Under the pieces are notes generated by a model, which worked only from the letters and a program-made list of their open reading frames with translations, was not told the DNA's origin and made no database searches. From Holosporales bacterium (GTDB taxonomy: Bacteria > Pseudomonadota > Alphaproteobacteria > UBA3830 > JAIRMZ01), in contig JAISAP010000047.1 in assembly GCA_031266655.1 (NCBI GenBank), positions 1 through 51,505 on the forward strand: 51,505 nt of DNA. Direction: 5' to 3'. The translations under genes and the position numbers were made by a program. Numbering within the stretch: position 1 is the first letter of the stretch; each line of letters begins with the position of its first letter. Positions 19,831-49,543 of the stretch are shown in pieces.

Positions 19831-19836
19831 GAGGGT

Positions 19837-21660: not shown

Positions 21661-21669
21661 GCGAGAAGC

Positions 21670-24088: not shown

Positions 24089-25732
24089 ATGAAGCAACGG
24101 AAGATTTTAGAGGCGATTGTTGTTGGCTCCTCAGGGGCTCTGAGTGCCTTTTCCGAGGTTGATGCAATGTGGTGGGATCTTGATTCCCTCCGGAGCGTGG
24201 CTGTTGTTCAAGGAGAATTAGTTACACCCTCTTCTCAGCCTGAAGAAGGTGTTGTGTTATGGCTAGGCACAGAGGCCGCTCATGCTTGGGGGCCTGATTG
24301 GCGCTTTAGCTTGTGTTACGTTGTTGTTCCCTGGAACATGGAGGTGCTGGGTGTGAGGTGCTTCGAAGGGTGTCACTTTCTCACCGCTGTTGTCTTCGAA
24401 TGGGGTTCTGCACCCCGAGTCATAGCAGAAAGAGCCTTCGCTGATTCCGGCCTTCAATCTTTCACTATTTTTGCGAGTGTGGGGGTTCTTGGAAACGAAT
24501 GTTTCGCAGATTGCCAATCTCTTGCCTGCGCCGTCTTTGAGGTTGGTTTTCCGCTCCGGACTATCGGGAAGGGGGTTTTCGCACGTTCTGGTCTGCAAGC
24601 ATTCACTATTCCCGCGGGCGTGGAGGTGCTGGCTGCAGGGTGCTTCGACAGTTGCCAATCTCTCACTTCCATCGTTTTTGAACAGGGTTCTAAACTTCTA
24701 GCCGTAGAAGAAAGGGCGTTTGCCGATACCGGTCTGCGATCCTTCACTATTTTTGCGAGCATAGAGGTGCTTGGGAAAGAATGTTTCGCAGGCTGCCAAT
24801 CTCTTGCCTGCGCCGTCTTTGAGGTTGGTTCTCCGATCCAGACTATCGGGGAGGGAGTTTTTGCCGGCTCTGGTCTGCAAGCATTCACTATTCCCGCGGG
24901 CGTGGAGGTGCTGGCTGCAGGGTGCTTCGACGGTTGCCAATCTCTCACTTCCATCGTTTTTGAACAGGGTTCTAAACTTCGAGTCATAGAAGAAAGAGCG
25001 TTTGCCGATACCGGTCTGCTGTTCTTCCATGTTTTTGCGAGTGTGAGGGTTCTTGGAAACGCATGTTTCGCAGACTGCCAATCTCTTGCCTACGTTACCT
25101 TTGAGGTCGGTTCTCCGCTCCAAACTATCGGAGAGGGAGTTTTTGCCCGCTCTGGTCTGCAAGCATTCACTATTCCCGCGGGCGTAGAGAAGATTGGAGA
25201 AGGCTGTTTTGCCTATTGCCAATCGCTTTCCAGTGTTGCCTTTGAGGGTGGTTCGCATCTCCAAACTATCGGGGAGGGAGTTTTTGCCGGCTCTGGTCTG
25301 CAAGCATTCACTATTCCCGCGGGCGTGAAGGTGCTGAGTGCAAACTGCTTTGCAGGTTGTCAACTTCTCACCGCCCTTGCCTTCGAACCGGGTTCTCAAC
25401 TCCGAGCCATAGGAAAAGCGGCCTTTATCGACTGCGCCAACTTGCCGTCCATTTGCATTCCCGCGGGCGTGGAGAAGATTGGAGAAGGCTGTTTTGCCTA
25501 TTGCCAATCGCTTTCCAGTGTTGCCTTTGAGGCTGGTTCGCATCTCCAAACTATCGGGGAATGTACCTTCCTTGCTTCCAGTATATGCTCCATAGGGATC
25601 CCCGCGAGCGTAGAGGAGATTGGGGAATGTTGTTTTCTGGATTGCCAATCGCTTGGCTCTGTCACCTGCAACAGTTCGCGATTTATCGTAGTGCGTCGAG
25701 GCTGTGGGTGGGAAGTTTATAAGCGCGAATGA
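24089..25732 (+). CDS. BspA-type leucine-rich-repeat protein (LRR_5-like), LRR1
   Basis: About 20 units of the ~23-24 aa repeat ..IPAGVEVLAAGCFDSCQSLTSIVFEQGSKLLAVEERAFADTGL.., with a 26-aa leader from the ATG at 24089 (the alternative ATG at 24077 is the track start). Nucleotide repeats are in 141/282-nt register. Confidence 0.88.
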   Translation: MKQRKILEAIVVGSSGALSAFSEVDAMWWDLDSLRSVAVVQGELVTPSSQPEEGVVLWLGTEAAHAWGPDWRFSLCYVVVPWNMEVLGVRCFEGCHFLTAVVFEWGSAPRVIAERAFADSGLQSFTIFASVGVLGNECFADCQSLACAVFEVGFPLRTIGKGVFARSGLQAFTIPAGVEVLAAGCFDSCQSLTSIVFEQGSKLLAVEERAFADTGLRSFTIFASIEVLGKECFAGCQSLACAVFEVGSPIQTIGEGVFAGSGLQAFTIPAGVEVLAAGCFDGCQSLTSIVFEQGSKLRVIEERAFADTGLLFFHVFASVRVLGNACFADCQSLAYVTFEVGSPLQTIGEGVFARSGLQAFTIPAGVEKIGEGCFAYCQSLSSVAFEGGSHLQTIGEGVFAGSGLQAFTIPAGVKVLSANCFAGCQLLTALAFEPGSQLRAIGKAAFIDCANLPSICIPAGVEKIGEGCFAYCQSLSSVAFEAGSHLQTIGECTFLASSICSIGIPASVEEIGECCFLDCQSLGSVTCNSSRFIVVRRGCGWEVYKRE

Positions 25733-28649: not shown

Positions 28650-28866
28650 AACTGGAAAAGAGCTCCCTCTGTTTCTACAAGCGCTCAAACGCATCCTCGT
28701 ACTCTAGCAGAAAAAGTCCCTCCTGCAGATGACGTCCTGAGCATGGGCTCTTCCTTCGATTTGACGTTCCTTCCCAGTGAAATTTACGGTTTTTTCATTC
28801 TCGTCACGTTAACTGTCTGCAACCTGTCCTGCGCCACGCGCACAGTCAAAAACAAAGGTGACAAAA

Positions 28867-30441
28867 ATGAAACAGCAAAGACGTTTAGGAACGATGGTCG
28901 CATGGGCTTTGGGAGTGCTGGGAGCATGTCCCGCAACTGAAGCGATGCGGCAGCTTCTGGAAGAGTCTCCCGACGGACAAGAGCGGGTTATCCTTCCCGC
29001 AGAGCTGAAAACGCTGCATGCGAGCCTTTTCGCCAATCACTTCGCTCCTTTCTCTGTTACTTTTGATCAGGGCTCTCGTTTTACGGAGATAGAAACACAC
29101 CTTTTCGCTTATTCCAGGATTCAGTCCGTTATCCTTCCCGCAAGCGTAGAAGTGCTTGAGGCAAGTTGCTTCGCCCATTGTCCATCGCTCATCTCCGTCA
29201 TGTTTGAAGCTGGTTCCTACCTGACCATCATCAGGGAGAATGTTTTCCAAGATTCTACTTTGCAGTCCATTGTGATCCCTGCGCGCGTGGAGGTCATGGG
29301 TGCACGGTGCTTCTCGGGGTGCCACTCGCTTGCTACCGTTGTCTTCGAAGCGGATTCCCGACTCGCGAGATTGGAGGAAGGCGTTTTCTGGAGCTCTAGC
29401 CTGCCCTCTCTCACCCTTCCGGCAAGCGTAGAGGTGATGGCAGAAAAGTGTTTTCAATTCTGTCAGTCTCTTGCTGCGCTTGCCTTTGAGACCGATTCTC
29501 GGTTGAGAAGCATAGAGGCGGACGCCTTTGCTTATTCTGGCTTGCCCTCTATCACCCTCCCAAGGAGTGTGGAAATGCTGGGAGTTGGGTGTTTCAGATA
29601 CTGCCGATCTCTTGTCTCCCTTGTCGTTGAGGAAGATTCTCGACTCGGAGATGTGGGAAGCGAAGCGTTTGCGGGAACGCTTTTGACAAGCATTGATTTC
29701 CCGGGTGGAGTGGCTCTTGGGGACTGTGTGTTTCAAGATTCTTGCATCCGAGAAATATACCTTGGAGGTGCCTTAGTGGACACTTCCAGTGACGCTTACG
29801 CAGGTGCCAAAATGCTGCAAAAACCGAAAGTGAGACAGGATGCACCACCCCCCAAGCCCTCTGAGGAGGGACGTTTGCAGGCACAGTTCCTCCTCAGCCA
29901 AATACAGGCCCAAGATCCGGCGTCTCCGATGGATACGAAAGAGATGCTGAAAGAGCTTTCCCCCCTCGTCCAGATGCGGAACCTAGAGGATCTGAACAAT
30001 GCCTTGGCTTCCTCCAGTTCTGGCGTTTCTGTGCACTCCGAGATGCATCTCCGGCAGCAAGGAGGGCTGCAGCGTACTGACCAACCTCTAGGTCTGGCTC
30101 TCGACGGAACAGGACCCTTTCAGAGCGCCAAAGAAGGCCTCTTGGGCAAATCCGCGGGCCTCTCCCTCCAAGATTGGTCCTTGCCGCAAGGGGGTCAGGG
30201 GATGGAAACCGGCGATGGCTCCCATGATGCGATTCCTGCTTCAGGGGCCTTCCGAACTGGGGTCTCGGGGGAGGGTGGATTGAGCATAATTGCCTCAGGC
30301 ACTCTGGAGCGCTCTCCCACAGATCTTGCCCACGAACTTTCCGAAATGATCCGCGCCCAATACGCTGCCAGTACCAAAGTCCTCTCTACCCTCGACGATA
30401 TGCTCGATATGTGCAACGTATCAGACGCGCCAAATGCCTGA
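28867..30441 (+). CDS. BspA-type LRR protein with a non-LRR C-terminal domain, LRR2
   Basis: AAAGGTG lies 6 nt upstream of the ATG at 28867 (the track start is the GTG at 28858). 26-aa leader MKQQRRLGTMVAWALGVLGACPATEA|M. About 11 LRR units (..LPASVEVMAEKCFQFCQSLAALAFETDSRLRSIEADAFAYSGL..) followed by ~210 aa with no repeats. Confidence 0.85.
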   Translation: MKQQRRLGTMVAWALGVLGACPATEAMRQLLEESPDGQERVILPAELKTLHASLFANHFAPFSVTFDQGSRFTEIETHLFAYSRIQSVILPASVEVLEASCFAHCPSLISVMFEAGSYLTIIRENVFQDSTLQSIVIPARVEVMGARCFSGCHSLATVVFEADSRLARLEEGVFWSSSLPSLTLPASVEVMAEKCFQFCQSLAALAFETDSRLRSIEADAFAYSGLPSITLPRSVEMLGVGCFRYCRSLVSLVVEEDSRLGDVGSEAFAGTLLTSIDFPGGVALGDCVFQDSCIREIYLGGALVDTSSDAYAGAKMLQKPKVRQDAPPPKPSEEGRLQAQFLLSQIQAQDPASPMDTKEMLKELSPLVQMRNLEDLNNALASSSSGVSVHSEMHLRQQGGLQRTDQPLGLALDGTGPFQSAKEGLLGKSAGLSLQDWSLPQGGQGMETGDGSHDAIPASGAFRTGVSGEGGLSIIASGTLERSPTDLAHELSEMIRAQYAASTKVLSTLDDMLDMCNVSDAPNA

Positions 30442-31117: not shown

Positions 31118-31439
31118 TGTCTTTTCCTTTATTTTAATACAGTACATTTCGTACCATAATATACATATAGTGAAAAAAATAAAAAAGACAAGCAGAAAAA
31201 AATATAATGGACAAAAGTCGTCGAGTTTTGGCAATTTCTTCGGAAGGCAGAGTTTCGCCTATGCTGCGCGCAGCGAGGCCTCCCAAGGGACCTACACTGC
31301 TGACCAAGAAGGGTATGAGACAGAGTCATGAGATATGCATACTCCACCCTATCCATTCCCACTGCGAAAATCTGTGTTTCTATAGCTTGTTCTACCGGAG
31401 AATTCGTACATAATGCACAGCAGACAGAGGCAACGAACC

Positions 31440-33002
31440 ATGGGACAGCACAAGGGTTTTCGCACGATTTCTGTGTTGATTCTGGGAGTGCTGAGCGTTC
31501 CTTCCAAGCCTGAAGCGATGCAATCGGAACGGGCCCCTGGTATTTCTGTTTTCCCTAGAAGAGGGGTCGCTCGTGCGGGGAGATTCGTTCCGTTTCCTAT
31601 CATTGAATCCTGCATAAACGACCAGATGGTAGGGGGCATTGCTTGGAAAGCCTGTCGGTGTTTTCCCTTACAATCCCTTGTTGTTCCCGCCTCCGTGAAG
31701 GGGATGGGAGTTGGATATTTCGAAGATTGTCGTTCTCTGGTCTGGGTTGTTTTCGAATGCGGTTCTCAGCTCCGAGACATTAAAGAGCGCACTTTCGCAA
31801 ATGTCGGTTTGAGGGCTATTGCGATTCCCAAAAGCGTTGAGACAATCGGAGAGTGGTGTTTCGGGAATTGCGATTCTCTAGCCTTGGTTACCTTTGAAGT
31901 TGGCTCTCGACTCCAAGACATTGGGGAAAACGCCTTCTTTGATTCTGGCGTGACAGCCATGATTCTGCCCGTAAGCGTTGGAAAAATTGGAAAGAATTGT
32001 TTCATGAATTGCGATTCTCTAGCCTTGGTTACCTTTGAAGTGGGATCTCGACCCCAAGACATTGGGGAAAACACTTTCTTCAATGTCGGTTTGAGGGCTA
32101 TTGCGATTCCCAAAAGCGTTGAGAGAATCGGAGGGTGGTGTTTCGCGAGTTGCCTTTTTCTAGCCTGGGTTACTTTTGAAGTTGGCTTTCGACTCCAAGC
32201 CATGGGAAAAAGCGCTTTCTTTAATACCGGTTTGAGAGCCATTACCCTTCCCACCAGTCTTGAGAGGATTGAAAGGGAGTGTTTCATGAATTGCCGATCT
32301 TTGACCTCGTTCACCTTTGAAGCGGGATCTCAACCTCAAGAAATAGGAGAAAGTTCCTTCGCTGGTTCTGGCGTGACAGCCATGACTCTGCCCGCAAGCG
32401 TTGGAAAAATTGGAAAGAATTGTTTCATGGATTGCCGATCTTTGACCTCGTTCACCTTTGAAGCTGGTTCTCAACTCCGAGACATTGGAGAAAGTGCCTT
32501 CTTTGGTTCCGGCGTGACAGCCATGATTCTGCCCGCAAGCGTTGGAAAAATTGGCAAGAATTGTTTCATGAATTGCCGATCTTTGACCTCGTTCACCTTT
32601 GAAGCTGGTTCTCAACTCCAAGACATTGGGGAAAACGCTTTCTCTAGTACCGATTTGAGAGCCATTACCCTTCCCGCCAGTCTTGAGAGAATTGGAGAGG
32701 GTTGTTTCGCGAATTGCCGATCTTTGACCTCGTTCACCTTTGAAGTGGGATCTCGACTCCAAGCCATGGGAAAAAGCGCCTTCGCTGGTTCCGGCGTAAC
32801 AGCCATGACTCTGCCCGCAAGTGTTGAGACAATGGGAAGGTGGTGTTTTATGGATTGCCGATCTCTTATCTTCGTTGATTCTGAGGAGGGCTCCCGGCTC
32901 ACGAGAATTGAGGCAAACACTTTCTCTGAGAGCCCTCAGGTGCAGCTCTCTCTTTTTCTCAGCAGCTTAATGGAGGCTAGCGCGACTGCCCCGCCCCTCT
33001 AA
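31440..33002 (+). CDS. BspA-type LRR protein, LRR3 (highly regular 141-nt repeats)
   Basis: 26-aa leader MGQHKGFRTISVLILGVLSVPSKPEA|M from the ATG at 31440 (track start 31413). Units take the form ..LPASVGKIGKNCFMNCRSLTSFTFEAGSQLQDIGENAF..G..A... The TGC-of-CxSL register recurs at 31869, 32010, 32151, 32292, 32433, 32574, 32715 and 32856. Confidence 0.88.
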   Translation: MGQHKGFRTISVLILGVLSVPSKPEAMQSERAPGISVFPRRGVARAGRFVPFPIIESCINDQMVGGIAWKACRCFPLQSLVVPASVKGMGVGYFEDCRSLVWVVFECGSQLRDIKERTFANVGLRAIAIPKSVETIGEWCFGNCDSLALVTFEVGSRLQDIGENAFFDSGVTAMILPVSVGKIGKNCFMNCDSLALVTFEVGSRPQDIGENTFFNVGLRAIAIPKSVERIGGWCFASCLFLAWVTFEVGFRLQAMGKSAFFNTGLRAITLPTSLERIERECFMNCRSLTSFTFEAGSQPQEIGESSFAGSGVTAMTLPASVGKIGKNCFMDCRSLTSFTFEAGSQLRDIGESAFFGSGVTAMILPASVGKIGKNCFMNCRSLTSFTFEAGSQLQDIGENAFSSTDLRAITLPASLERIGEGCFANCRSLTSFTFEVGSRLQAMGKSAFAGSGVTAMTLPASVETMGRWCFMDCRSLIFVDSEEGSRLTRIEANTFSESPQVQLSLFLSSLMEASATAPPL

Positions 33003-33049: not shown

Positions 33050-35005
33050 CTACTGAGTTAATTGCGGGAGATCTTTGAAGTACTCTAAGACGGAGGCGTC
33101 TTCCAGGGACTCCTTGTTCTTGATCTCTTTGCCATGGATCATGCACTTAACCGCAATTTCTGTGATCTTCCCATTCTTGGTGTGCGGAATAGCCGGCACC
33201 TGGAGAATCAGGCTAGGAACGTGGCGCGGAGTCGCATTCGTGCGGATCACGCGCTTGATGCGGTCTACGAGCTCTTCTGTCAAGGTCACGCCTTCAGCAA
33301 GCGCCACAAACAAGAGGACGCGCTCATCGTTGTTCCACTGCTGTCCCACTGCGACGCTCTCTAGCACCTCTTTGACAGTGCAAACCTGCTCATAAATCTC
33401 CGCCGTGCCAATACGCACCCCTCCGGGATTCAACACTGTGTCCGCCCGTCCTGAGATCACCACCCCATGATTCTTGGTGACTTCTCCCCAGTCTCCATGG
33501 CACCAGACATTCGGGAAGGATTCGAAATAGGCCTTGTGATACCGCTCTCCGGAGGCATCCCCCCAGAACCCAATGGGTTGCGAAGGGAACGTCTGCGTGC
33601 AGACAAGATCGCCCTGCTCTCCCGTGGCCACAGGTTTTCCTCGACTATTGAAGAATTCCACCTTCATTCCTAAGCCGCGCCCCTGCATCTCACTGGAAAA
33701 AACGGGGCTGATGGGGTTTCCTATCATGAAGCAAGAAACGATGTCTGTCCCCCCCGAAAAGACGTTCAAATGCACATCCTTTTTGATGTTTTTGTAAACG
33801 CTGGTCGCGGTTTCTGGGCTGAGGGGGGACCCCGTGACGCCCACCGTTCGGAGCGTCATGAGCCTATGCGTCTTGGCTGGACGGATTTCCATTTTGGAGA
33901 TCATGTCCAAGTATTTGGCGGAAGTACCAAAGAAGGTCATATCCCAAGCATCCGCGTAGTCAAAGAGGATGTCCGGCCTGGGGTGCAGCGGAGAGCCGTC
34001 ATACAGGAGCAAAGTGGCCTCAGAAGCCAGAACGGAAGTAAACCAGTTCCACATCATCCAACTGCAGGTTGTAAAGTAAAAGACACGATCGTTGGGAGTG
34101 ATATTACAGTGCAGCTGGTGCTCTTTGAGGTGCTGCAGAAGGGTGCCTCCGGCGCCATGGACGATACACTTGGGTACCCCTGTGGTTCCCGAGGTGAAAA
34201 GAATGTAGATCGGGTGATTGAAGGGGAACTTCTTAAATTCCAAGGGAGGAACAGGACCCTTCCCAGAGAAAGTGGCGAAGTCGGTGACGCGCTTGCCGAT
34301 CCCGCGAGGAAGGCCTGCTTCGATGTAGGGAATGATCACCAGTTTTTCGACAGAAGGTAATCCGTTGACGACCTCTGTGATTTTGTTGGTGTTATCAAAG
34401 GCTTTTCCCTTGTAGTAGTACCCGTCTACGGCGAAAAGCACTTTCGGGGCCACCTGACCGAAGCGGTCAATGGCACCTGCTGCGCCGAAATCGGGGGAAC
34501 AAGAGGACCAGATCGCTCCAATACTGATCGTCGCGAGGGCGGCGATGATCGTCTCTGGAACGTTGGCGACGTATCCGGCAACCCGATCGCCTGGGACGAC
34601 CTTTAGCTCTTTCAAGGCATGCGCAACGCGCGCAACCGCATCAAAGAGCTCCTTATACGTGTAGGTCTTCTGGACCTTGTCCTCCCCCCAGAACACCAGG
34701 GCGAGACGCCCATCTTGCCTTCGAAGCAAATTTTCTGCGAAATTCAAGCGCGCTTCTGGGAAATAATGGTGGCATTCAAAGCGCTTTTCCCCATTGGTGA
34801 TGCGCTCTCCCTTGGTTTCCGCAATAACGCCGCAAAAGTCCCACACGCTATTCCAGAACGCTTGCGGATTCTTGACAGACCACTCCCACAGAGCCGGCAT
34901 GCCGGGGAGCGAACAATGTTGTTCTTGCTCTATTTTATGAAGTAATCGATAAAGATTGGTCTGTGCAATTTGTCCTTCCGAAGGGCTCCAAAGGGGCTTT
35001 TTCAT
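33050..35005 (-). CDS. Acetoacetyl-CoA synthetase (acetoacetate-CoA ligase)
   Basis: 651 aa. The N-terminus (LWSPSEGQIAQTNLYRLLHKIE...ALWEWSVKNPQAFWNSVWDFCGV) is typical of acetoacetyl-CoA synthetases. AMP-binding motif FTSGTTGVPKCIVH. The length fits AACS rather than acetyl-CoA synthetase. Confidence 0.85.
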   Translation of the reverse strand: MKKPLWSPSEGQIAQTNLYRLLHKIEQEQHCSLPGMPALWEWSVKNPQAFWNSVWDFCGVIAETKGERITNGEKRFECHHYFPEARLNFAENLLRRQDGRLALVFWGEDKVQKTYTYKELFDAVARVAHALKELKVVPGDRVAGYVANVPETIIAALATISIGAIWSSCSPDFGAAGAIDRFGQVAPKVLFAVDGYYYKGKAFDNTNKITEVVNGLPSVEKLVIIPYIEAGLPRGIGKRVTDFATFSGKGPVPPLEFKKFPFNHPIYILFTSGTTGVPKCIVHGAGGTLLQHLKEHQLHCNITPNDRVFYFTTCSWMMWNWFTSVLASEATLLLYDGSPLHPRPDILFDYADAWDMTFFGTSAKYLDMISKMEIRPAKTHRLMTLRTVGVTGSPLSPETATSVYKNIKKDVHLNVFSGGTDIVSCFMIGNPISPVFSSEMQGRGLGMKVEFFNSRGKPVATGEQGDLVCTQTFPSQPIGFWGDASGERYHKAYFESFPNVWCHGDWGEVTKNHGVVISGRADTVLNPGGVRIGTAEIYEQVCTVKEVLESVAVGQQWNNDERVLLFVALAEGVTLTEELVDRIKRVIRTNATPRHVPSLILQVPAIPHTKNGKITEIAVKCMIHGKEIKNKESLEDASVLEYFKDLPQLTQ

Positions 35006-35194
35006 CGCTGTTTCTCCTGCAATCTATGGAATGTCCATTTTGGGATAAAATTATTACCAATTGGTAAACTAAGCACATTTTTTGCGCCAATTCATCAAAA
35101 ATTCCCCAATATACTCCCGCATAGCGCCTCTCTCCCTTCTCCAGTCGGATTCCTGGGATGACAAGGCATGCAATCTCGAGTATCTTGCCGAGGG

Positions 35195-35280
35195 GCCCAG
35201 GTGGCGGAATTGGTAGACGCGCTAGATTCAGGTTCTAGTCTGTTCTGCAGGTGGAAGTTCGAGTCTTCTCCTGGGCACCA
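35195..35280 (+). tRNA. tRNA-Leu (anticodon CAG), type II with long variable arm and encoded CCA
   Basis: GCCCAGG acceptor / CCTGGGC-A-CCA. Anticodon stem CTAGA/TCTAG with loop TTCAGGT (CAG). Long variable arm. T-arm GGAAG-TTCGAGT-CTTCT. Confidence 0.92.
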
Positions 35281-35292
35281 TCGGGAGAAAAC

Positions 35293-35904
35293 ATGAAGGT
35301 TGTCTTGCACAAAGGGGATCTCCCTGCGGGAATGGAGTTCCCGAACGGAGTTGCCATCGATACGGAGGCGATGGGCCTGAAAATCGGCCGAGATCGGCTC
35401 TGCCTGGTGCAGCTCTGCGGAGGAGACGACGTCTGTCACTTGGTGCAAATTGCTCCTGTTCCTAGGGCAGCCCCGCACTTGGTGCGTCTCCTGGAAGACC
35501 GCACGGTATTGAAAATCTTCCACTTTGCGCGCTTCGATGTTGCTCTTCTGGAAAAGACTTTTCCGTGCACCGTCCGTCCTTTTTACTGCACAAAACTTGC
35601 CTCCAAACTTGTGCGTACCTACACGGACCGGCATGGTCTTAAAGAGTTGTGCAAAAGCCTGTTGCAAGTGGACCTTTCCAAGGAAGAACAGACGTCTGAC
35701 TGGGGAAGCGAAACGCTCAGTCCAGAGCAACAGCGCTACGCGGCAACAGATGTCCTCCACTTACACGCCTTGAAAAAGCGGTTAGACGCGATGATGCTAC
35801 GAGAAGAAAAGGTCGAGCTTCTGCAGGCCAGCTTTCGGGGGCTTGCAGAGATCCTGCTCCTAGAACAAGCTGGATTTGAGGCGGAGAGCTTGTTTCGCCA
35901 TTAA
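35293..35904 (+). CDS. rnd: Short RNase D-like 3'-5' exonuclease (DEDDy)
   Basis: VAIDTEAMGL (ExoI), HFARFDVALL (ExoII) and YAATDVLHL (ExoIII with Tyr). ~203 aa from the ATG at 35293. The track start at 35251 lies inside the tRNA. Confidence 0.85.
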   Translation: MKVVLHKGDLPAGMEFPNGVAIDTEAMGLKIGRDRLCLVQLCGGDDVCHLVQIAPVPRAAPHLVRLLEDRTVLKIFHFARFDVALLEKTFPCTVRPFYCTKLASKLVRTYTDRHGLKELCKSLLQVDLSKEEQTSDWGSETLSPEQQRYAATDVLHLHALKKRLDAMMLREEKVELLQASFRGLAEILLLEQAGFEAESLFRH

Positions 35905-35908
35905 CTGC

Positions 35909-36868
35909 ATGCTGCCGCTGTCCCCCCTCACGCGCTCTTATACCCTTCCCGGGAAGGCGCTTCTCTTCGGAGAATACGGCCTGCTCCTCGGTCTCCCGGG
36001 GGTCGTCGTCACGCTTCCTGCCTTCCCGATGGAGGTGGTCTGCAGCCTCATCCCTGCGAAAGGGACGCCGGAGGTTCGGATCAAGAGCGCTTTGTTGCCA
36101 AAGCAACACCTCACTCTGCGCGGAGGAGAGCGGGGATTTTTCCCGAGCCTGCTCGCTCCTTATCAGGAGGTGCTGACCCATTTTCGACGGAAAGGATACG
36201 ACCTGACCATGGCGGTCACTCGGTATTTTCCCCCTTCCCTAGGGATGGGATCCTCTTCTGCTCTGCTTGCCAGCTTCCACGCGTTTCTCTTCTCTTTTCT
36301 CGATGCGGCACCCCCTCTGAGCTCCCCGATCTTCTTTGAGCGCCTACACACCAGCATCAACGACTGTCAAGGGGCGGGGAGTGGATACGATGCGACCCTC
36401 CAGCTCGCCGCTCAGGGGAGTTCCGTTCCTCAGTTGTGGAGGTACCAACGCGCACCTCATGCGGCCCTGCCAGATTTTTCGGTTTTGCCTCCTTCTTCAA
36501 AAAAGGCCGTTCACTATGGCACGATCTTGAAAACCAACAGGTATGCGAGAACCAAAAAGGCGTTAAAAAGATTCGCGACAAGCGGAGATCCCTCCTTGGC
36601 ACAAGCGCATGGAGCGTTGGCGACGCGTTTTCTACAGGATCCCTCTCCGTCCCACCTTTTAGGCCTTATGGAAGAAGCGCAGCATCTCCAGAAGCAGCAA
36701 GGGATTCTGCCAAATCTTCCTCTGCTTCAGCGTCTGCGCGCAGCACAGGTTCCGTTCAAAAGCCTGGGGGCAGGATTCGGAGATTGTCTATGGTCTCCCT
36801 GGAAGGCAGAAGGCTTATCGGAATTCCAAGAGGCGATCGTAACGGAGGTGATTCTCCCATGCGCTTAG
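35909..36868 (+). CDS. mvaK2: Phosphomevalonate kinase (GHMP family)
   Basis: LPGKALLFGEYGLLLGLPGVV N-terminal motif and GHMP motif II PPSLGMGSSSALLASF. Its position next to MVD and MVK supports the call. The ATG at 35909 follows the rnd stop. PMK versus another GHMP kinase is inferred mainly from context. Confidence 0.7.
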   Translation: MLPLSPLTRSYTLPGKALLFGEYGLLLGLPGVVVTLPAFPMEVVCSLIPAKGTPEVRIKSALLPKQHLTLRGGERGFFPSLLAPYQEVLTHFRRKGYDLTMAVTRYFPPSLGMGSSSALLASFHAFLFSFLDAAPPLSSPIFFERLHTSINDCQGAGSGYDATLQLAAQGSSVPQLWRYQRAPHAALPDFSVLPPSSKKAVHYGTILKTNRYARTKKALKRFATSGDPSLAQAHGALATRFLQDPSPSHLLGLMEEAQHLQKQQGILPNLPLLQRLRAAQVPFKSLGAGFGDCLWSPWKAEGLSEFQEAIVTEVILPCA

Positions 36869-37977
36869 AGCTTTCTCCTGCTTTGCTCCCCATTTTGGAA
36901 AAAGCGCGACAGGCGGGTCTTGCACCCCGATCGGGGAGCTGCAGCGCACCTTCCAATATCGCTCTTATCAAGTATTGGGGAAAGGAGCCCGATGCGTTCC
37001 AAATCCCTCTCAACTCAAGCCTCAGCATGACCCTAGGGGGGTTCCGATCCTTCGTAACTCTGCGCTCCATCGAGCAGTCGGAGCACCTATTTTCTCTCAA
37101 CGACGTCATGGTGCCTCTTCCCGCGCGCTTGCAGACGGTGTTGGACTTTCTCCTGCCATCCCTGGGATATCCCGGCGGCCTTTCCATCACAGGTTCCGGC
37201 AATTTCCCCATCGCTTGCGGACTGGCGTCCAGCGCTTCAGGAGGAGCTGCCCTTATCGGCGCCCTGTCCGATGCCTTCCGCCTCCAAGAGGTTTTGTCCC
37301 CCGAAGAGCACCTCTTGTGGCTGACAGAAGGCGCTCGCCTCTTCAGTGGGTCGGCCACACGCTCCGTTCTCCCTGCTCCTTTTGTCCTGTGGGAGCGCTT
37401 GGCGGGTCAGAAGGCAACGCGCACAAGAGCGGTGCCCACAGGTTTTCCTCCTCTAGGACACGGTGTCGTTCTCATGGAAGCGGGGAAGAAGCCCTTCTCG
37501 AGCAGTCGGGGTCACGAGGCGGCGCCCACCTCCCCGTTGTTTCTATGGCATCAGGCTACCGTTCCCCAGGCGCTCCAAGAAGTGCAGAAAGCTCTGCTCT
37601 CAGGAGATTGGCAGACGCTTGCGCAGCATACAGAGCAGGAGGCGTTTGCGTTGCACGCCATCATGCAGACGGCCCATCCTCCTCTGCAGTGTCTGCCGGA
37701 GAAAACCCAGACTTTCTTGAACGCCTTTCTCTCAGAACGCCATCGGCATGCCTTGCGGGCGATGATTTCCCTGGATGCGGGTCCGAATGTGCACCTCCTG
37801 TTTCTCGAAGAAGACAAATCTGCGTTAGAGTCTCTTCTAGAGATAATTGCAAAGGCGCAAAAAATGTCCTTTTCTGTACTATGGAACAATGCTTCTGCAC
37901 CGATCGCACTTGGCAAAGATCAGGTGGATTCCCTGCCGAAGGCTCTTCTCCTTCAAAAGCACTTCTCCGGCTCATGA
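36859..37977 (+). CDS. mvaD: Diphosphomevalonate decarboxylase
   Basis: APSNIALIKYWGKEPD..IPLNSSLSMTL and GLASSASGGAALIGAL are hallmark MVD blocks. The ATG at 36859 overlaps the PMK end by 10 nt. The upstream part of track ORF 36436..37977 is read-through. Confidence 0.88.
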   Translation: MRLELSPALLPILEKARQAGLAPRSGSCSAPSNIALIKYWGKEPDAFQIPLNSSLSMTLGGFRSFVTLRSIEQSEHLFSLNDVMVPLPARLQTVLDFLLPSLGYPGGLSITGSGNFPIACGLASSASGGAALIGALSDAFRLQEVLSPEEHLLWLTEGARLFSGSATRSVLPAPFVLWERLAGQKATRTRAVPTGFPPLGHGVVLMEAGKKPFSSSRGHEAAPTSPLFLWHQATVPQALQEVQKALLSGDWQTLAQHTEQEAFALHAIMQTAHPPLQCLPEKTQTFLNAFLSERHRHALRAMISLDAGPNVHLLFLEEDKSALESLLEIIAKAQKMSFSVLWNNASAPIALGKDQVDSLPKALLLQKHFSGS

Positions 37978-38867
37978 CGGTACATGCCCACGCGGGGGGT
38001 AAACTTATTTTGGTCGGCGAGCATGCCGTTGTCTATGGACATCCCGCGGTCGCCATTCCCCTTCCTTCCCTCACGGTCGAAATCAGTGTGAACACTGCGC
38101 AGGAGCCAAATACCCTGTTCTCGGAAGAAGAATGGGGGAGGGTCATGCGCGCCTTCCTGCTCTGTCGCCAGCTCTTGGCGCGCCAATATCCTCCTATTCC
38201 GACAGGAGGCCTTCCTCCCTTGCGGATCCAGTCTTCTCTACCCCTTGGCAAGGGCTTGGGGGGAAGTGCGGCGGTGAGTATCGCGCTGGTACGGTTTTGC
38301 GCGCAATGGTTCTCGATCGATCTCACGGTGCGTGAAGTGGCCTCTTATGCAAACCAACTCGAGTCCATCTTTCACCATGCTCCCAGCGGGGTAGATGTCG
38401 AGACGGCCCTGTCCTCTGCTCCCCTCTTTTTCCAGAAAGGCCAACCAGGGCGCACGCTGCCCGCGCTTCCCCCTTGCAGTATCGTCCTGATCGATACGCG
38501 AGAGCATGCCTCTACGGAAAAGATGGTGCGGTGTTTGCAAAAACATCTGGAGGAGACCCCCGCCGACCATCAGCATTTGCAGGCGATAGGGTCCCTTGCC
38601 CAAGATGTGAGGCAAGCGATAGAGCAGCAAGATCTTCCACGGCTGGGCGCCTCTCTGACGCAGGCCCAGGGTCATTTGCGCGCGCTGCACCTATCGACGC
38701 CTGCCCTGGATCGCGCTGTAGCAACGTTGTGCGATAAGGGAGCGCTTGGGGCGAAGATGACAGGCAGTGGAGGCGGAGGAATAGCGTTCGGCGTGTTTTC
38801 CTCTCCGCCGGATCTCTCTTCGTTGCAAGCGTGCGGAGATACCTTTTTGTTAGACAGAACTCTGTAG
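37974..38867 (+). CDS. mvk: Mevalonate kinase
   Basis: GGKLILVGEHAVVYGHPAVAIP, PLGKGLGGSAAVSIALV (GHMP motif II) and KMTGSGGGGIAFGV (motif III). The ATG overlaps the mvaD stop as ATGA. The N-terminal 333 codons of track ORF 36975..38867 are out-of-frame read-through of mvaD. Confidence 0.88.
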   Translation: MTVHAHAGGKLILVGEHAVVYGHPAVAIPLPSLTVEISVNTAQEPNTLFSEEEWGRVMRAFLLCRQLLARQYPPIPTGGLPPLRIQSSLPLGKGLGGSAAVSIALVRFCAQWFSIDLTVREVASYANQLESIFHHAPSGVDVETALSSAPLFFQKGQPGRTLPALPPCSIVLIDTREHASTEKMVRCLQKHLEETPADHQHLQAIGSLAQDVRQAIEQQDLPRLGASLTQAQGHLRALHLSTPALDRAVATLCDKGALGAKMTGSGGGGIAFGVFSSPPDLSSLQACGDTFLLDRTL

Positions 38868-39464
38868 ATGCAGAAAAAGCACAACACACTGGATGTCCAG
38901 AACGAACGACGGCGTTCTGCCGCTGTGCGCAGGGCAGGATACAGTATCGCGGGCGTTGTCCTGGGTCTTATCGGCCTTTTCGCAGGCTTCCCCATCTTAA
39001 AGGAAGGGTTGTCCTCCCCTCCTACCTACGAACCCACGCCTTCCTCCCAGGGAGAAGAGCAGATCGTCGGATTATCGATGCGAGGAGAGACAGGGGACCC
39101 CAAAGAGCCCTTCTTTTTACTTTCCGATAAAGCGTACATGGTACAAAATAAGCAATACCTGGAGAATCCCTTCATGAAGGTTCCCAAGGATGGAAAGATG
39201 ATCCGATATTGGGGAAAAGAGGGGGAGTTGGATATGGAGAAGAATATTCTCGTGATGCGACGGGATGTGCGCGCCCTCACAGAGTCCGGGATCCTTGTGA
39301 TGACAGAAGAGGCCACCGTGGACGTAAAAAACAAAAAAGCGTGGGGCGAGGTGCCCGTCCGTGCCTTCTACCAGACTGGCCGTCTTACAGGAACTGCTTT
39401 CCGATACGATGGGAAACTAGGGCGCTTGTACGTTTCTGGTCTCGTGCGCATCACGGTCCATTGA
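38868..39464 (+). CDS. lptC: LPS export system protein LptC
   Basis: 198 aa, a single N-terminal TM segment (YSIAGVVLGLIGLFAGF), a beta-rich periplasmic part, and a position directly upstream of lptA-lptB-rpoN. The ATG immediately follows the mvk stop codon. Confidence 0.65.
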   Translation: MQKKHNTLDVQNERRRSAAVRRAGYSIAGVVLGLIGLFAGFPILKEGLSSPPTYEPTPSSQGEEQIVGLSMRGETGDPKEPFFLLSDKAYMVQNKQYLENPFMKVPKDGKMIRYWGKEGELDMEKNILVMRRDVRALTESGILVMTEEATVDVKNKKAWGEVPVRAFYQTGRLTGTAFRYDGKLGRLYVSGLVRITVH

Positions 39465-39479
39465 AGAAGTAAGGGAAGC

Positions 39480-40466
39480 ATGGTTTTCAAAAAGCGCCTT
39501 ATTATTGGATTCCTATCGTCCCTCGTACTTTGCCCTCGCGTGTCGACCTCAAAGGAGGCGGTCAAGGCACCTCCTCCTGCGGCTCCCAAGACCTCCTCTG
39601 CCTCCAAGACTCCAGCTCCTGTTCCTGCAGACAAGAAGCCCGCCTCTTCCGCGCCGTTGCGCGCTCCTCCATCGGTTTCTCTCATTCCGCCCCCCCCACC
39701 GGCGCCTCCCTCTCCTGCGGCGCCTCCGGCTTCCTCTCAGAGCGAGAGTGAGCCTCTTGAAGTGACAGCAGACTCCTGCGTAGCGGATGAGAATGCCAAC
39801 GTGGTGCAACTCAGTGGAAGGGTGGAGGCCATCCAAAAAGATCTGCACCTATGGGCCGATGAGGCGGAGGGAATTGCTCCTCCGGGCACGAAATTCGGTA
39901 TGAAAAACCCAGAGATTGTGGAAGCACGTGGTCAGGTGGTGGCCAAAACTCCTACACAGATGGGATATGCAGATACGGCAATCTATAAAACGGAAGAGCA
40001 GCATCTGCATCTCCAGGGGAAGGAGGTGCATCTCATGGGGGGAGATCACCGTCTGACAGCGGCAGAATCGGCGGATTATTGGGAGAATGATCTAAAAGCG
40101 GTGGCGCGTAAAAATGTGATTTTGCATACGAGCGATAAAGTGATCAAAACCGATGAGCTTTGGGTCTTTTTTAAGCGAAACGAAGAAGGTAAATTGGAAA
40201 TTATCTTCGCCTACAGTCCCATTCGTGTCTCCCTGGCGACTCCCGATGAGATTTTCATCGGGGATCAGGGGACCTACGACCCGAGGAGCGGGATGGCCAC
40301 TCTAGAAGGAAATGTCAGTGTGACGCGTCTTTCCGATCAATCTCGCTTGTCAGGCGCTTATGCAACGCTGGATCTTAACACAGGGGTGTCGCATGTCTAT
40401 GCGCATCCTCCTGCCTCTAGCAAGGCGGTTGTCGTCCCGATCCAAGGAAAGCTACCAGAGAAATAA
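39480..40466 (+). CDS. lptA: LPS transport periplasmic protein LptA (OstA-like) with a Pro/Ala/Ser-rich N-terminal extension
   Basis: Signal-like N-terminus, then ~80 aa of P/A/S-rich sequence (APPPAAPKTSSASKTPAPVPADKKPASSAPLRAPP...PPPPPAPPSPAAPPASS). An OstA-type fold signature follows (LEVTADSCVADENANVVQLSGRVEAIQKDLHLWADE ... ATLEGNVSV). Located between lptC and lptB. Confidence 0.75.
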   Translation: MVFKKRLIIGFLSSLVLCPRVSTSKEAVKAPPPAAPKTSSASKTPAPVPADKKPASSAPLRAPPSVSLIPPPPPAPPSPAAPPASSQSESEPLEVTADSCVADENANVVQLSGRVEAIQKDLHLWADEAEGIAPPGTKFGMKNPEIVEARGQVVAKTPTQMGYADTAIYKTEEQHLHLQGKEVHLMGGDHRLTAAESADYWENDLKAVARKNVILHTSDKVIKTDELWVFFKRNEEGKLEIIFAYSPIRVSLATPDEIFIGDQGTYDPRSGMATLEGNVSVTRLSDQSRLSGAYATLDLNTGVSHVYAHPPASSKAVVVPIQGKLPEK

Positions 40467-40474
40467 GGTAAGCT

Positions 40475-41224
40475 ATGCACGAAACGCACACCCTCTCTGC
40501 ACGCAAGCTCTCCAAGAGCGTGGGGAAACGCGCGGATCGCCGTGTGATCGTCAGCGATGTTTCCATGCATATTCACTCGGGAGAGGTAGTGGCCTTACTG
40601 GGCCCGAATGGAGCGGGAAAAACGACCTGTTTCTCCATTTTGTGTGGATTGATCCCTCCCGAAGGAGGACAAGTCTTTCTGGATGATGAGGACATCTCTT
40701 GCCTTCCCATGTACCGGCGCGCCCGGTTGGGGATCGGGTATCTCCCTCAAGAACCTTCCATCTTCCGGGGATTATCGGTAGAGGAGAACATTCTGGCCGT
40801 TTTGGAACGCATTGAACCGAATGAGCAGAAGAGGCAGGAGCGAACACGCAAATTGCTGGAGGATTTTTCTATCGCGCATCTCCATGCCACTCCTTCCCTT
40901 GCTTTATCGGGGGGGGAGCGCCGACGGCTAGAGATCGCGCGGGCTTTGGCGACCGATCCGGCGTTTATCTTACTCGATGAACCCCTCGCCGGCATCGATC
41001 CCATCGCGGTAGGTGATATGCGCACCCTGATCCATCACCTCAAGGATCGGGGCATTGGCGTTCTCATCACCGATCACAATGTGCGCGATACCCTGACCAT
41101 CGCGGATCGCGCTTATATCATGTTCGACGGCAAGATCCTTTCCGAAGGGTCTTCTGAGGAAATCATCAAAGACGAAAATGCGCGGCGCGTTTACCTTGGA
41201 GAAAGTTTTTCCCTCTACACCTAG
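40475..41224 (+). CDS. lptB: LPS export ABC transporter ATP-binding protein LptB
   Basis: Walker [10 protein letters not shown], signature [15 protein letters not shown], Walker B ILLDEP. 249 aa, upstream of rpoN. Confidence 0.93.
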
Positions 41225-41229
41225 AGGGG

Positions 41230-42591
41230 ATGGAAAAATATAGACTCCGTTTAGACGCACGTTTTGCCCCTTCTCTTGTGGTAACGCCACAGATGCGACT
41301 GGCCGTCAAAATGCTCCAAATGAGCAATATAGAGCTCTCCGAGTTTTTGCGCCAAAAAACAGAAACCAACCCTTTTGTCCAGCTCGAGACCTCCGGCCCA
41401 AGCAGTGCTTTGCCATCAGACACGCAAGGTTGGCGCGCGGAGGTGGAGCCTACTGATCCCTTTGCGCAGGTGATCGCGCCTGTCTCTCTGCGGGAGCACC
41501 TCATGAAGCAGCTTATGCTTATGAGCTCCGATCCAGAGAAGTGCCTGCTTGGGGAAGTGATGATTGACGCCTTGGATCCCCGCGGCTATTTCCTTCCGCA
41601 GGCGAAAAGCGCCGTTGTAGAGGTCGCCAACGTCTCTCCTGAGCAGGTGGAGGCGCTTCAGCGGGAGATGCAGCATTTTACTCCCGTGGGGATTTTCGCT
41701 TCCTCCTTAGAGGAGTGCTTTAAGCTTCAGCTAGCGGATTCTGGGGTCTTAACGCCAGCCATGCTGCAAATTATTGACCACCTAGAGCTTTTCAAAAATG
41801 GGCAGTTTGGAGCTCTGCAGCAGCTTTGTCACATGGACATATCAGAGATCCGCCATTGCGTGCAAAAACTGCGCACTCTGGCACCCTATCCTGCCGCTTC
41901 TTTTAGTACTGAGCCAATTTGGCCCCGTATTCCGGATTTGATCGCGGAGGATCTTGGAGGGGGGGATTGGAGGATCACCGTCAACCCCGAGACGCAGCCC
42001 GCCATCTGCGTCGATCGCACCTATTATGCCGAGATTTCGGCTCGCGCGCGCGCGCAAGAAGAGCAAAAATTCATGCGCCAGAACTTCTCTCAAGCTCTAT
42101 GGTTTGAGACCGTCTTGCAACAGCGTGCAGCAACCCTTGTTCGCGTCACCCGCGAGATCGTTCGCCAGCAAGAGGCTTTCTTCGAGAAGGGTATCCATTA
42201 CCTGAAACCTCTCTGTCAAAGACAAATCGCAGAGGAGCTGGATGTGCACGAAAGTACGATCAGTCGTGTTGTTTCCTCGAAAAGCCTGTGGACTCCTGCG
42301 GGCATTTTCGATCTTCGCCTCTTTTTCTCCTCTGGCGTACCAGACTGCGGAGAGGAGAACATCGTGCGTACGAGCCGTTCTGTATCTGCGCGTCTCAGGG
42401 AATTGATCCAAAAAGAGTCTCCTGCCGCTCCATTATCCGACGACCAATTGGCAACCCTTCTGTTCCAGCAAGACCGCATTGCGATTGCGCGTAGGACGGT
42501 GACCAAGCACAGGAATACTTTACGGATACCGACCGCAACGGAGCGCTACCGCACAGGCCAGATCTCACAGTGGGAATCTCTTCACGAGTGA
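41230..42591 (+). CDS. rpoN: RNA polymerase sigma-54 factor RpoN
   Basis: Region I LVVTPQMRLAVKMLQMSNIELSEFL, an HTH, and the RpoN box ARRTVTKHRNTLRIP near the C-terminus. Confidence 0.93.
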   Translation: MEKYRLRLDARFAPSLVVTPQMRLAVKMLQMSNIELSEFLRQKTETNPFVQLETSGPSSALPSDTQGWRAEVEPTDPFAQVIAPVSLREHLMKQLMLMSSDPEKCLLGEVMIDALDPRGYFLPQAKSAVVEVANVSPEQVEALQREMQHFTPVGIFASSLEECFKLQLADSGVLTPAMLQIIDHLELFKNGQFGALQQLCHMDISEIRHCVQKLRTLAPYPAASFSTEPIWPRIPDLIAEDLGGGDWRITVNPETQPAICVDRTYYAEISARARAQEEQKFMRQNFSQALWFETVLQQRAATLVRVTREIVRQQEAFFEKGIHYLKPLCQRQIAEELDVHESTISRVVSSKSLWTPAGIFDLRLFFSSGVPDCGEENIVRTSRSVSARLRELIQKESPAAPLSDDQLATLLFQQDRIAIARRTVTKHRNTLRIPTATERYRTGQISQWESLHE

Positions 42592-48090: not shown

Positions 48091-48241
48091 GCGGGGCTTT
48101 TCCTGAAATACCGTTGGAAAGTGAAGCTACCAAAGAATTCTTTCCAAGACCATGTCGGTAGAGCTCCCTTCGATTTTTACCGTGTTGATTTTTAAAAATC
48201 TTTCGCCATACTGTTTACTTCCAATATCAAGCGAGAAAATA

Positions 48242-49543
48242 GTGACTATACGAAAAATTTTATATGCAACTTCTCTGTTTACCGCAGGAGTGCTGAGCGT
48301 CTTTCCTGAGGCTGGAGCAATGCAGAGATGGGAAGAACCCTCTGATGGATGGTTCCTTGCTTTTAGGAATGAGGTCGCTTGGCAGGGAATAGCCCTCATG
48401 CCTTTTGGACCCGAAAGTATGATCGAGGGTACTCCACGCTATCCTGGTTTGCAGCGCATCTTTATTTCTGCATGCATGGAGGCGCTTGGAGGGTGTTGTT
48501 TCGCTGGGCTTCAAGCCCTCTCCCATATCGCTTTTGAGGCTGGTTCTCGAGTTACGTGTATGAACACGGGTGTTTTCCAGGGGTCCGCCTTGCAGGCCAT
48601 ATGTATTCCCGCGCCTGTAAAGAAACTCGGGAAATGTTGTTTTTCGCACTGTTCGTCTCTTACCTGCGTTACTTTCAGTTCCCCTTCTCAACTCGCAGTC
48701 ATTGGAGAATATACGTTTTCTAAAACAGCGCTGAGCTTCCTCAATCTCCCGTTTCATCCCTCATATGACATAGAGGTTGGGATCTGCCCATTTGACGAGT
48801 CTAGCATCGTGAGGATATGTATCGGAGGAGAGCCTGTGGACCCTCAGACTGGTCTGTACGCTGGCACCGGCATTGTGCGAGACGTAACGATTCACCAAGA
48901 GCTTCCGTCTTACTGCTTTGCAAGTTGCCGCTCTCTCACTTCTGCCACCTTTAAGCCTGATTTTTCCCCTGCAACGATAGAGTCGTACGTCTTCTACAGG
49001 TCTGGTTTGCGGAGCGTGACAATCCCCGCAAGTGTGGAGACGATCATGCAAAGATGTTTTTCAGCTTGTACCTCCCTTGCTTTCGTTGCCTTTGATGCTG
49101 GTTCCCGGCTCACGCGTATAGAGCCTTACGCTTTCTGTAATACTGCCCTTCCAAGTATCGTGATCCCCGCAAGCGTAGAAACCATCATGAAAAGATGTTT
49201 CGCTCAGTGTCAGTTTCTTATCTCTTTTTCTTTCGAGGCCAGTTCCCGACTCACGGAGATGGGAGAAGGCGTTTTTTTCTGTTCTAATTTGAGGAACATA
49301 GCCGTTCCTGCGGGCGTTACGGCGCTCAGGAAAGAGTGCTTCTTCAGTTGCCCTTTTCTTATTCACGTTACTTTTGGAGCTGGTTCCCAACTCAAAAGCG
49401 TATGCGCAGACGCTTTCTCCAGAAGCCCTCAGGCACAAGTTCTTCTTCCGGATAGAAAGAATTACTCTTCCAAGCAGCTTAGTTCGGGTTGGACGTTGGA
49501 GGAGGAATTAGGCAAGAGCCCCAGCTCATCCACTCCCTCGTGA
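48242..49543 (+). CDS. BspA-type LRR protein, LRR4
   Basis: The in-frame GTG at 48242 gives the 26-aa family leader (TIRKILYATSLFTAGVLSVFPEAGA|M); track ORF starts at 48152. The N-terminal block WEEPSDGWFLAFRNEV is shared with LRR5, followed by LRR units (..IPASVETIMQRCFSACTSLAFVAFDAGSRLTRIEPYAF..). Confidence 0.85.
   Translation: MTIRKILYATSLFTAGVLSVFPEAGAMQRWEEPSDGWFLAFRNEVAWQGIALMPFGPESMIEGTPRYPGLQRIFISACMEALGGCCFAGLQALSHIAFEAGSRVTCMNTGVFQGSALQAICIPAPVKKLGKCCFSHCSSLTCVTFSSPSQLAVIGEYTFSKTALSFLNLPFHPSYDIEVGICPFDESSIVRICIGGEPVDPQTGLYAGTGIVRDVTIHQELPSYCFASCRSLTSATFKPDFSPATIESYVFYRSGLRSVTIPASVETIMQRCFSACTSLAFVAFDAGSRLTRIEPYAFCNTALPSIVIPASVETIMKRCFAQCQFLISFSFEASSRLTEMGEGVFFCSNLRNIAVPAGVTALRKECFFSCPFLIHVTFGAGSQLKSVCADAFSRSPQAQVLLPDRKNYSSKQLSSGWTLEEELGKSPSSSTPS

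Follow-up and report, generated by a model that had tools for sequence, protein, structure and literature searches.

Layout of the cluster and its recurrence in related genomes

The stretch of DNA described in this report, referred to below as the window, is 51,505 nt long in its entirety and comes from a termite-gut metagenome assembly; its affiliation with the Holosporales is taken from the labels of the nearest metagenome-assembled genomes (MAGs). Between an rnd-like exonuclease gene and lptC the window carries a trio of genes of the GHMP superfamily at 35909-38867 (g1, g2 and g3, Table 1), which are predicted to encode a phosphomevalonate kinase (PMK)-like protein, a diphosphomevalonate decarboxylase (MDD; gene mvd, protein also MVD) and a mevalonate kinase (MVK; gene mvk), respectively, and which probably constitute together the lower half of the mevalonate (MVA) pathway. 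The genes are closely packed. The overlap between g1 and g2 is 10 nt, with a GGAGG Shine-Dalgarno sequence ahead of the g2 start and within the 3' end of g1, and an ATGA overlap couples g3 to g2. At the outer borders, 4 nt separate rnd from g1, and the ATG of lptC at 38868 abuts the stop codon of g3 with a gap of 0 nt. The translations contain PGKALLFGEY and GMGSSSALL in g1, APSNIALIKYWGK and GLASSASGGAAL in g2, and GKLILVGEHAVVYG, PLGKGLGGSAAVS and KMTGSGGGG in g3. An earlier note on this DNA had described three coupled GHMP-family genes with these overlaps and these motifs, all of which are present as it claimed.

The nearest homologues of the trio occur in five MAGs labelled "Holosporales bacterium" that derive from other termite samples, at identities of 54-62% for g1 and 54-60% for g2. 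In all five of these MAGs rnd is followed by g1 and mvd; mvk is in place in four of them and the order runs on into lptC in three, continuing through lptA, lptB and rpoN where the contig reaches that far. The rnd product is 70-75% identical in those MAGs that hold the gene whole or nearly so, and rnd is closely preceded by a tRNA-Leu(CAG) gene in the window as well as in both MAG contigs that reach this position (L002 and L006). Most comparisons between the window and its relatives are saturated at synonymous sites, and only one pair of loci (L120-L005) is well within range for estimating dN/dS, the ratio of nonsynonymous to synonymous substitution rates, which for this pair is 0.136 for g1, 0.094 for mvd and 0.111 for mvk. 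Recurrence in five related MAGs and ratios of 0.09-0.14 in this unsaturated pair show that the trio is real and far beyond what chance could produce.

Table 1. Features of the window, with coordinates, strand and basis of assignment
Feature	Coordinates	Strand	Basis or remark
Acetoacetate-CoA ligase, full-length, divergent neighbour	33050..35005	-	NF002937 891 bits vs cut-off 639
Sigma-70-like promoter match, possible start of the co-directional cluster	35158..35186	+	Upstream of tRNA-Leu; consensus match only
tRNA-Leu (CAG), conserved left neighbour of rnd	35195..35280	+	ARAGORN; Rfam RF00005 54 bits
rnd-like 3'-5' exonuclease, left flank of insertion	35293..35904	+	203 aa; PF01612 119.7 bits; start taken from the gene call in L001
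g1, PMK-like GHMP kinase (putative phosphomevalonate kinase)	35909..36868	+	319 aa; profiles, motifs, context
g2, predicted diphosphomevalonate decarboxylase (MDD type)	36859..37977	+	372 aa; domains, active-site residues
g3, predicted mevalonate kinase	37974..38867	+	297 aa; TIGR00549, GHMP_N, GHMP_C
lptC-lptA-lptB-rpoN, right flank of insertion	38868..42591	+	Pfam LptC, LptD_N, ABC_tran, Sigma54
BspA-type LRR_5 protein	24077-25732	+	Pfam
BspA-type LRR_5 protein	28858-30441	+	Pfam
BspA-type LRR_5 protein	31413-33002	+	Repeat sequence only
BspA-type LRR_5 protein	48152-49543	+	Pfam
BspA-type LRR_5 protein	49526-50860	-	Pfam

Mevalonate kinase and the decarboxylase

The predicted product of g3 can be identified firmly as a mevalonate kinase. 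It scores 201.1 bits with the NCBIfam mevalonate kinase model TIGR00549 (cut-off 163.05), exceeds the cut-offs of both GHMP domains (PF00288 and PF08544, N- and C-terminal), and carries the motifs GEHAVVYG and TGSGGGG, with the GEH and GGGG of the MVK type.

The second gene, g2, very probably specifies a classical MDD. Two Pfam domains, MVD-like_N (PF22700, 100.9 bits) and MDD_C (PF18376, 55.7 bits), pass their cut-offs in its product. The residues that mark enzymes of the MDD type are Tyr18, Lys21, Ser139, Ser141 and Ser192 in the numbering of the S. epidermidis protein (Dellas et al. 2013, Table 4, PMC3857490), and g2 possesses Tyr39 and Lys42 (in YWGK), an S-G-S arrangement (in ARLFSGSATRS), an SSS arrangement (in KKPFSSSRGH) and an Asp (in LDAGPNVH), all of which align to structure 3qt5. 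The domains, the signature residues and the catalytic Asp of the MDD fold and active site are all present.

An alternative to be weighed is the route of the haloarchaeal and Chloroflexi type, in which g2 would be a phosphomevalonate decarboxylase (PMD) acting on mevalonate 5-phosphate, while g1 would be a new isopentenyl-phosphate kinase (IPK) of the GHMP type and not a PMK. Several observations favor this scheme at the expense of the MDD assignment. The score of g2 with the NCBIfam MDD model TIGR01240 is 153.3 bits, just below the membership cut-off of 171.35; its top match among solved structures in the PDB is the PMD of Anaerolinea thermophila (6n0x, PMC9254496), at 111 bits slightly above any MDD structure (104 bits for the MDD of Legionella); it shares with 6n0x a GH motif, at a position where a 6n0z variant has Met; and none of the PMK profiles fits g1. 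However, the Legionella MDD (3lto) likewise has a His at the GH position, and Silvanigrellales-type orthologues of g2 do pass the TIGR01240 cut-off (184 and 213 bits), whereas the model for the Chloroflexi/haloarchaeal PMDs (NF040704, cut-off 475) gives g2 42.2 bits, as compared with 153 bits for the MDD model. The phosphate-binding residues of g2 are of the MDD type as well: Lys42 and the serines of the S-G-S and SSS motifs are retained at positions where the PMDs differ. The Lys is replaced by Leu in the Chloroflexi enzymes, in which two of the serines are also changed to Ala and Thr, and by Met or Tyr in the haloarchaeal ones (PMC3857490, Table 4). In addition, g1 exhibits motifs of the PMK type (see below), and no IPK of the amino-acid-kinase type is seen in the window. 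We consider the PMD-IPK scheme unlikely and treat g2 in what follows as a predicted MDD.

An orphan kinase family at the probable phosphomevalonate kinase step

The predicted product of g1 is clearly a GHMP kinase and is claimed by no curated family. It scores 20.0 bits with the Pfam domain GHMP_kinases_N, under the cut-off of 22.3. The PMK label that the earlier note had attached to it is backed by motifs, by context and by natural gene fusions, but failed with every curated PMK profile. The profiles count against the label in two ways, in that the best NCBIfam match is a weak one to the MVK model TIGR00549 (30.6 bits) and the PMK models TIGR01220, TIGR01219 and NF040957 give no match to the window g1 at E <= 0.01. 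A comparison of folds brought no support for it either: an AlphaFold2 (AF2) model of g1, with a predicted local distance difference test (pLDDT) score of 94.5, matched MVK, PMK and galactokinase structures in the PDB alike, at template modeling (TM) scores of 0.56-0.70, and the fold therefore cannot assign the substrate. Within a set of 26 members of the g1 family, eight match TIGR01220 weakly (best E 8e-7), two match Arch_PMK and one matches ERG8. A profile built from the same 26 members reaches MVK structures at E ~1e-10 and the Listeria protein 3k17 at 4e-9; the latter, although a fragment of 225 residues, is a bona fide PMK (244 bits with TIGR01220).

At the level of motifs the family resembles PMK. 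Its consensus includes PGKALLFGEYG, QGxGSGYDVA and GAGxGDCLW, to be compared with PGKLYVAGEYAV (GEYAV), QGNGSCGDIA and GSGGGDC in the PMK 3k17 and with GEH, ASITD and GAGGGGC in the MVK 1kkh. That is, g1 has GEY and not GEH, GSGxD(I/V)A, and GxGDC and not GGGGC, and it has these features in common with the Gram-positive PMKs (TIGR01220; Listeria Lin0012 3k17, S. pneumoniae 1k47 and 3gon). The Gram-positive mvaK1-mvaD-mvaK2 (mvk-mvd-pmk) operon likewise conducts the same three reactions with three enzymes of the GHMP superfamily, but its gene order is the reverse of that in the window, TIGR01220 does not match g1 at E 0.01, and the g1-family profile reaches the S. pneumoniae PMK 1k47 at E = 0.8.

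The genomic context of the family points in the same direction. In the operon g1 is the sole candidate for the step between a recognizable MVK and an MDD. An exhaustive profile search at E <= 1e-30 yielded 81 representative clusters of the family (defined at 50% identity), with a step in score below ~124 bits, and in six of the 81 clusters, all environmental relatives, g1 is naturally fused to MVD in a protein of 729-830 aa (P0318, P0320, P0325, P0326, P0333 and P0335). One such fusion (L118, 2761-5151) lies within an idi2-hmgR-[g1::mvd]-mvk arrangement beside a separate MVK gene. A more distant fusion between a GHMP protein and MVD was also noted (P0376, 670 aa). In Spirobacillus cienkowskii, which is described as making carotenoids by way of the MVA pathway, the genes 03350, 03345, 03340, 03335 and 03330 have been assigned to isopentenyl diphosphate isomerase (IDI), HMG-CoA reductase (HMGR), PMK, MDD and MVK, respectively (PMC12321486), and the PMK label falls on the gene at the operon position of g1. 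The motifs, the operon position, the fusions and the label in S. cienkowskii lead us to infer that g1 is a phosphomevalonate kinase, and the family probably supplies the PMK step in the Silvanigrellales and their relatives.

Age and maintenance of the module

The GC content at third codon positions (GC3) is 0.616-0.621 across the trio, as compared with 0.54-0.62 for the adjoining rnd-lpt-rpoN genes and values up to 0.65 for other housekeeping genes of the window. Since these values lie within the housekeeping range and dN/dS is 0.09-0.14, the module is old and is maintained by purifying selection.

The possibility that the three genes are an orphan, decaying and functionless remnant in an organism that acquires its isoprenoids through the methylerythritol phosphate (MEP) pathway or by import draws on the lack of upper-pathway and IDI genes in the window, on the failure of idi2 and hmgR to be carried along at the insertion site, and on the one MAG in which mvk is missing from the site. 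A search for RNA-seq data found no run that contained the locus. Against decay, no reading frame of the trio is disrupted in the window or in four of the five MAGs, and the fifth retains two of the three intact; the catalytic motifs and the overlaps of start and stop codons are conserved; and, beyond the low dN/dS ratios, the GC3 of the trio is fully ameliorated, which implies long retention. Decay appears quite improbable on this evidence, and a functional module is the better description.

The insertion site

Searching metagenomes at the Joint Genome Institute (JGI) with the rnd protein yielded 80 loci at 52-59% identity, and the 39 of these with at least 2.5 kb of sequence downstream of rnd were taken for an examination of the corresponding site. 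In 34 of the 39, a same-strand lptB lies 1.0-3.5 kb downstream of rnd, in most cases accompanied by lptA or rpoN, and g1, mvd and mvk were found in none of the 39. In the window, lptB lies 4.6 kb from rnd; the trio accounts for 2.96 kb of this interval, and the ~1.6 kb that remain correspond to a spacing that is common in the other loci. The empty site in 39 loci and the match in distance mean that the ancestral order was rnd-lptC-lptA-lptB-rpoN and that the trio was inserted at the rnd|lptC junction. An empty site, nearest homologues that are foreign, and conserved flanks (tRNA-Leu, rnd and lptC) are all features of this locus that would be expected of a horizontal insertion. The 39 trio-free rnd-lpt-rpoN loci, together with nearest outside homologues in the Silvanigrellales, make the horizontal acquisition suggested by the earlier note probable. 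That note had also named a finding that would speak against its proposal, i.e., that close relatives might commonly carry the operon by vertical descent. This is true within the termite-gut clade. Since the operon is common to the clade, the transfer is old and clade-wide and not specific to the genome of the window.

It could be proposed instead that the Alphaproteobacteria or the Holosporales possessed the trio ancestrally and passed it on by vertical descent, with losses elsewhere, as its native codon composition and its occurrence at a conserved place in each of the six genomes of the clade would allow. Its absence from all 39 loci with conserved rnd-lpt-rpoN synteny, the occurrence of the nearest homologues of g1 and MVD in the Oligoflexia and not in the Alphaproteobacteria, and a 2025 review of the Holosporales in which isoprenoids, terpenoids, MEP and mevalonate are nowhere mentioned (PMC11909080) make such an ancestry very improbable. 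The weakest explanation, that a chimeric or contaminated assembly joined foreign DNA to an alphaproteobacterial contig, has in its favor the metagenomic source of the window and is negligible in view of the recurrence of the rnd|g1 and mvk|lptC junctions both in MAGs of other termite samples and in an independent contig from Logan, the junction gaps of only 4 nt and 0 nt, and a GC3 in the trio that is the same as in the flanking genes.

A putative donor among the Silvanigrellales

Apart from the termite MAGs, the g1 family is restricted to the Silvanigrellales/Oligoflexia (Fluviispira, Silvanigrella and many MAGs), with identities of 26-37%. The operon in these bacteria is idi2-hmgR-g1-mvd-mvk in every locus that extends far enough, and in two such loci that were compared with NCBIfam the type 2 IDI (IDI2), class II HMGR, MDD and MVK proteins score above their cut-offs wherever tested. 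The earlier note had remarked that the order g1-mvd-mvk departs from the common mvk-mvd-pmk arrangement; it does, and it equals the order in the Silvanigrellales operon, which explains what had seemed odd about it.

Searches with g2 gave matches in three tiers, at 387-459 bits for the Holosporales, ~170-220 bits for Silvanigrellales-type proteins and no more than 160 bits for all other bacteria. In a neighbor-joining (NJ) tree of 120 MVD proteins the Holosporales clade was recovered in 100 of 100 bootstraps, and the grouping of the Holosporales with the Silvanigrellales-type proteins in 72. The motifs ACG(I/L)ASSASG and SSSxGH are common to the MVD proteins of these two groups, where other bacteria have AAG and S.xGM. 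Such observations suggest, with moderate confidence, that the donor was a Silvanigrellales-like operon of which the three genes at the 3' end were captured by an ancestor of the clade. The direction of transfer from the Oligoflexia to the Holosporales is indicated by the far greater diversity seen in the Oligoflexia and by their more complete operon. None of the plasmids in PLSDB encodes a relative of g1, so that this search identified no mobile vector.

The likeness between the window and the Silvanigrellales operon (Spirobacillus cienkowskii Spiro2_03350 to 03330, Fluviispira and Silvanigrella) thus comprises the same orphan g1 family, the same g1-mvd-mvk order and the nearest outside relative of the window MVD. 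The two differ in that the window has the last three genes only, with idi2 and hmgR not adjacent, and in that identities amount to no more than 26-41%. The organisms also differ, the Silvanigrellales being free-living or Daphnia-pathogenic pigmented bacteria, in contrast to the alphaproteobacterial gut symbiont represented by the window.

A proposed history of the locus

The proposed sequence of events begins with an ancestor of the termite-gut Holosporales, which would have acquired by horizontal transfer the 3' portion of a Silvanigrellales-type (Oligoflexia) idi2-hmgR-g1-mvd-mvk operon. The captured genes would have been inserted between rnd and lptC inside the conserved tRNA-Leu-rnd-lptCAB-rpoN cluster, with which they are probably co-transcribed, and would have been inherited vertically under purifying selection since then. 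In the resulting module, the MVK encoded by g3 would phosphorylate mevalonate, the divergent PMK-like GHMP kinase encoded by g1 would form mevalonate 5-diphosphate, and the MDD-type decarboxylase encoded by g2 would release isopentenyl diphosphate (IPP).

We assign a probability of roughly 70% to this history, i.e., to a functional lower mevalonate module that was captured from a Silvanigrellales-type operon, inserted at rnd|lptC and thereafter maintained by vertical descent and purifying selection. In addition to the profile and fold results for g1, the results for g2 and the RNA-seq search discussed above, a few observations must be set on the other side of the balance. The bootstrap value of 72 is moderate support for the donor clade. 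In one MAG (Ct408_bin51, L006 6903-10422) synteny is lost after mvd, where an H+-translocating pyrophosphatase takes the place of mvk and lptC; either a rearrangement or a contig chimera might account for the break. No gene for a thiolase, HMG-CoA synthase (HMGS), HMGR, IDI, a prenyltransferase or an enzyme of the MEP pathway occurs in the 51.5-kb window, and with a Silvanigrellales-type HMGR as query there was no Holosporales-labelled protein among the best 120 matches, all of which were at least 50% identical to the query and Oligoflexia-like, such that divergent or unlabelled copies would escape. The lower mevalonate module in an alphaproteobacterial backbone that the earlier note had proposed nevertheless finds support, in a more specific form: the transfer appears to be an old and clade-wide one with a likely donor, and the putative PMK is recognized by its context and not by membership in a family.

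The source of mevalonate

Mevalonate could be made by the organism's own HMGS and HMGR, encoded elsewhere in its genome, or could come from the host. A low-ranking match to the HMGR query, P0147, proved to belong to another idi2-hmgR-GHMP-mvd-mvk operon on a contig that is not from the Holosporales. It is possible, though doubtful, that the clade has kept no more than the lower half of the pathway and is a scavenger that takes up mevalonate, or mevalonate 5-phosphate, from the protist or insect that hosts it. The imported compound would be converted to IPP, which would serve to make undecaprenyl phosphate and quinones, and the clade would have neither a MEP pathway nor HMGR of its own. The assignment of HMGS in Spirobacillus cienkowskii bears question marks (PMC12321486, Table S2), and a non-canonical enzyme may serve the upper pathway even in the putative donor lineage.

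The divergent neighbor of the cluster encodes an acetoacetate-CoA ligase, an enzyme that is unusual for a reduced symbiont. That it supplies acetoacetyl-CoA to an upper pathway is speculative because the gene is not syntenic in any related MAG, and since it also lies on the opposite strand it was rejected as a part of the module.

Other features of the window

The backbone of tRNA-Leu, rnd, lptC-lptA-lptB-rpoN, lpxC, ntrYX and mfd agrees with that of the MAGs labelled Holosporales, which bears out the alphaproteobacterial core that had been described around the trio, and the other genes of the window (mfd, kdsA, pyrG, rne, ntrYX, ftsI, rsmH and lpxC) are ordinary alphaproteobacterial housekeeping genes. 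A scan for promoters gave five consensus sites as compared with 2.9 expected, one of them the site listed in Table 1, and inside the cluster neither promoters nor terminators were found above background. The tRNA was the only match in a scan with Rfam.

Three further observations might be of interest for the biology of the organism. The two-component genes NtrY/NtrX (15849-19681, - strand) and rpoN (41230-42591, + strand) suggest that sigma-54-dependent regulation has been kept by this symbiont. At least five BspA-type leucine-rich-repeat (LRR_5) proteins, typical of protist- or gut-associated bacteria, are encoded within 51 kb, and the tail of the one at 28858-30441 gives weak matches of the FlgD and flagellar-rod C-terminal types. 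In a stretch at ~19800-23800 the GC content falls to 0.45-0.47, as compared with 0.53 for the window, and the open reading frames (ORFs) 20734-21660 and 22178-23116, each of ~310 aa, have no match in Pfam; this stretch could contain effector genes or represent an island that was acquired separately.

Significance

Mevalonate pathways acquired by horizontal transfer are known in Gram-negative bacteria, including the intracellular alphaproteobacterium 'Candidatus Sarmatiella mevalonica' (PMC11253213). This member of the Rickettsiaceae, an endosymbiont of Paramecium, is by its description an intracellular, protist-dwelling alphaproteobacterium that gained its mevalonate genes horizontally, and in this respect is comparable with the organism of the window, but its pathway is reported to be complete and it belongs to a different bacterial order. 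The borrowing of a pathway by a symbiont is therefore of a known kind, real but not unprecedented. What is modestly novel is the truncated version of the operon, embedded in an envelope gene cluster, along with an uncharacterized family of PMK-like kinases. The termite-gut 'Candidatus Paracaedibacteraceae' were called uncharacterized in the 2025 review of the Holosporales (PMC11909080), and our search of the literature found no paper that links the Paracaedibacteraceae with the mevalonate pathway.

For the kinase family, the implication is that ~80 clusters of proteins are left as "hypothetical" or are mislabelled as mevalonate kinase by current profile libraries. For the study of gene transfer, the locus represents a clean insertion that can be dated, for which both an empty site and a plausible donor lineage are available. 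Obligate intracellular Alphaproteobacteria vary in how they are supplied with isoprenoid precursors, and the locus adds the Holosporales to this picture. Rickettsia lacks both of the isoprenoid routes and imports precursors (PMC5615194). If the termite-gut clade is indeed a scavenger of mevalonate, its isoprenoid dependency would be distinct from the import of IPP or farnesyl diphosphate (FPP) inferred for Rickettsia and would rest on a third, biochemically uncharacterized lineage of GHMP phosphomevalonate kinases. Should the clade lack HMGR, the module would mark a dependency on the mevalonate of the host.

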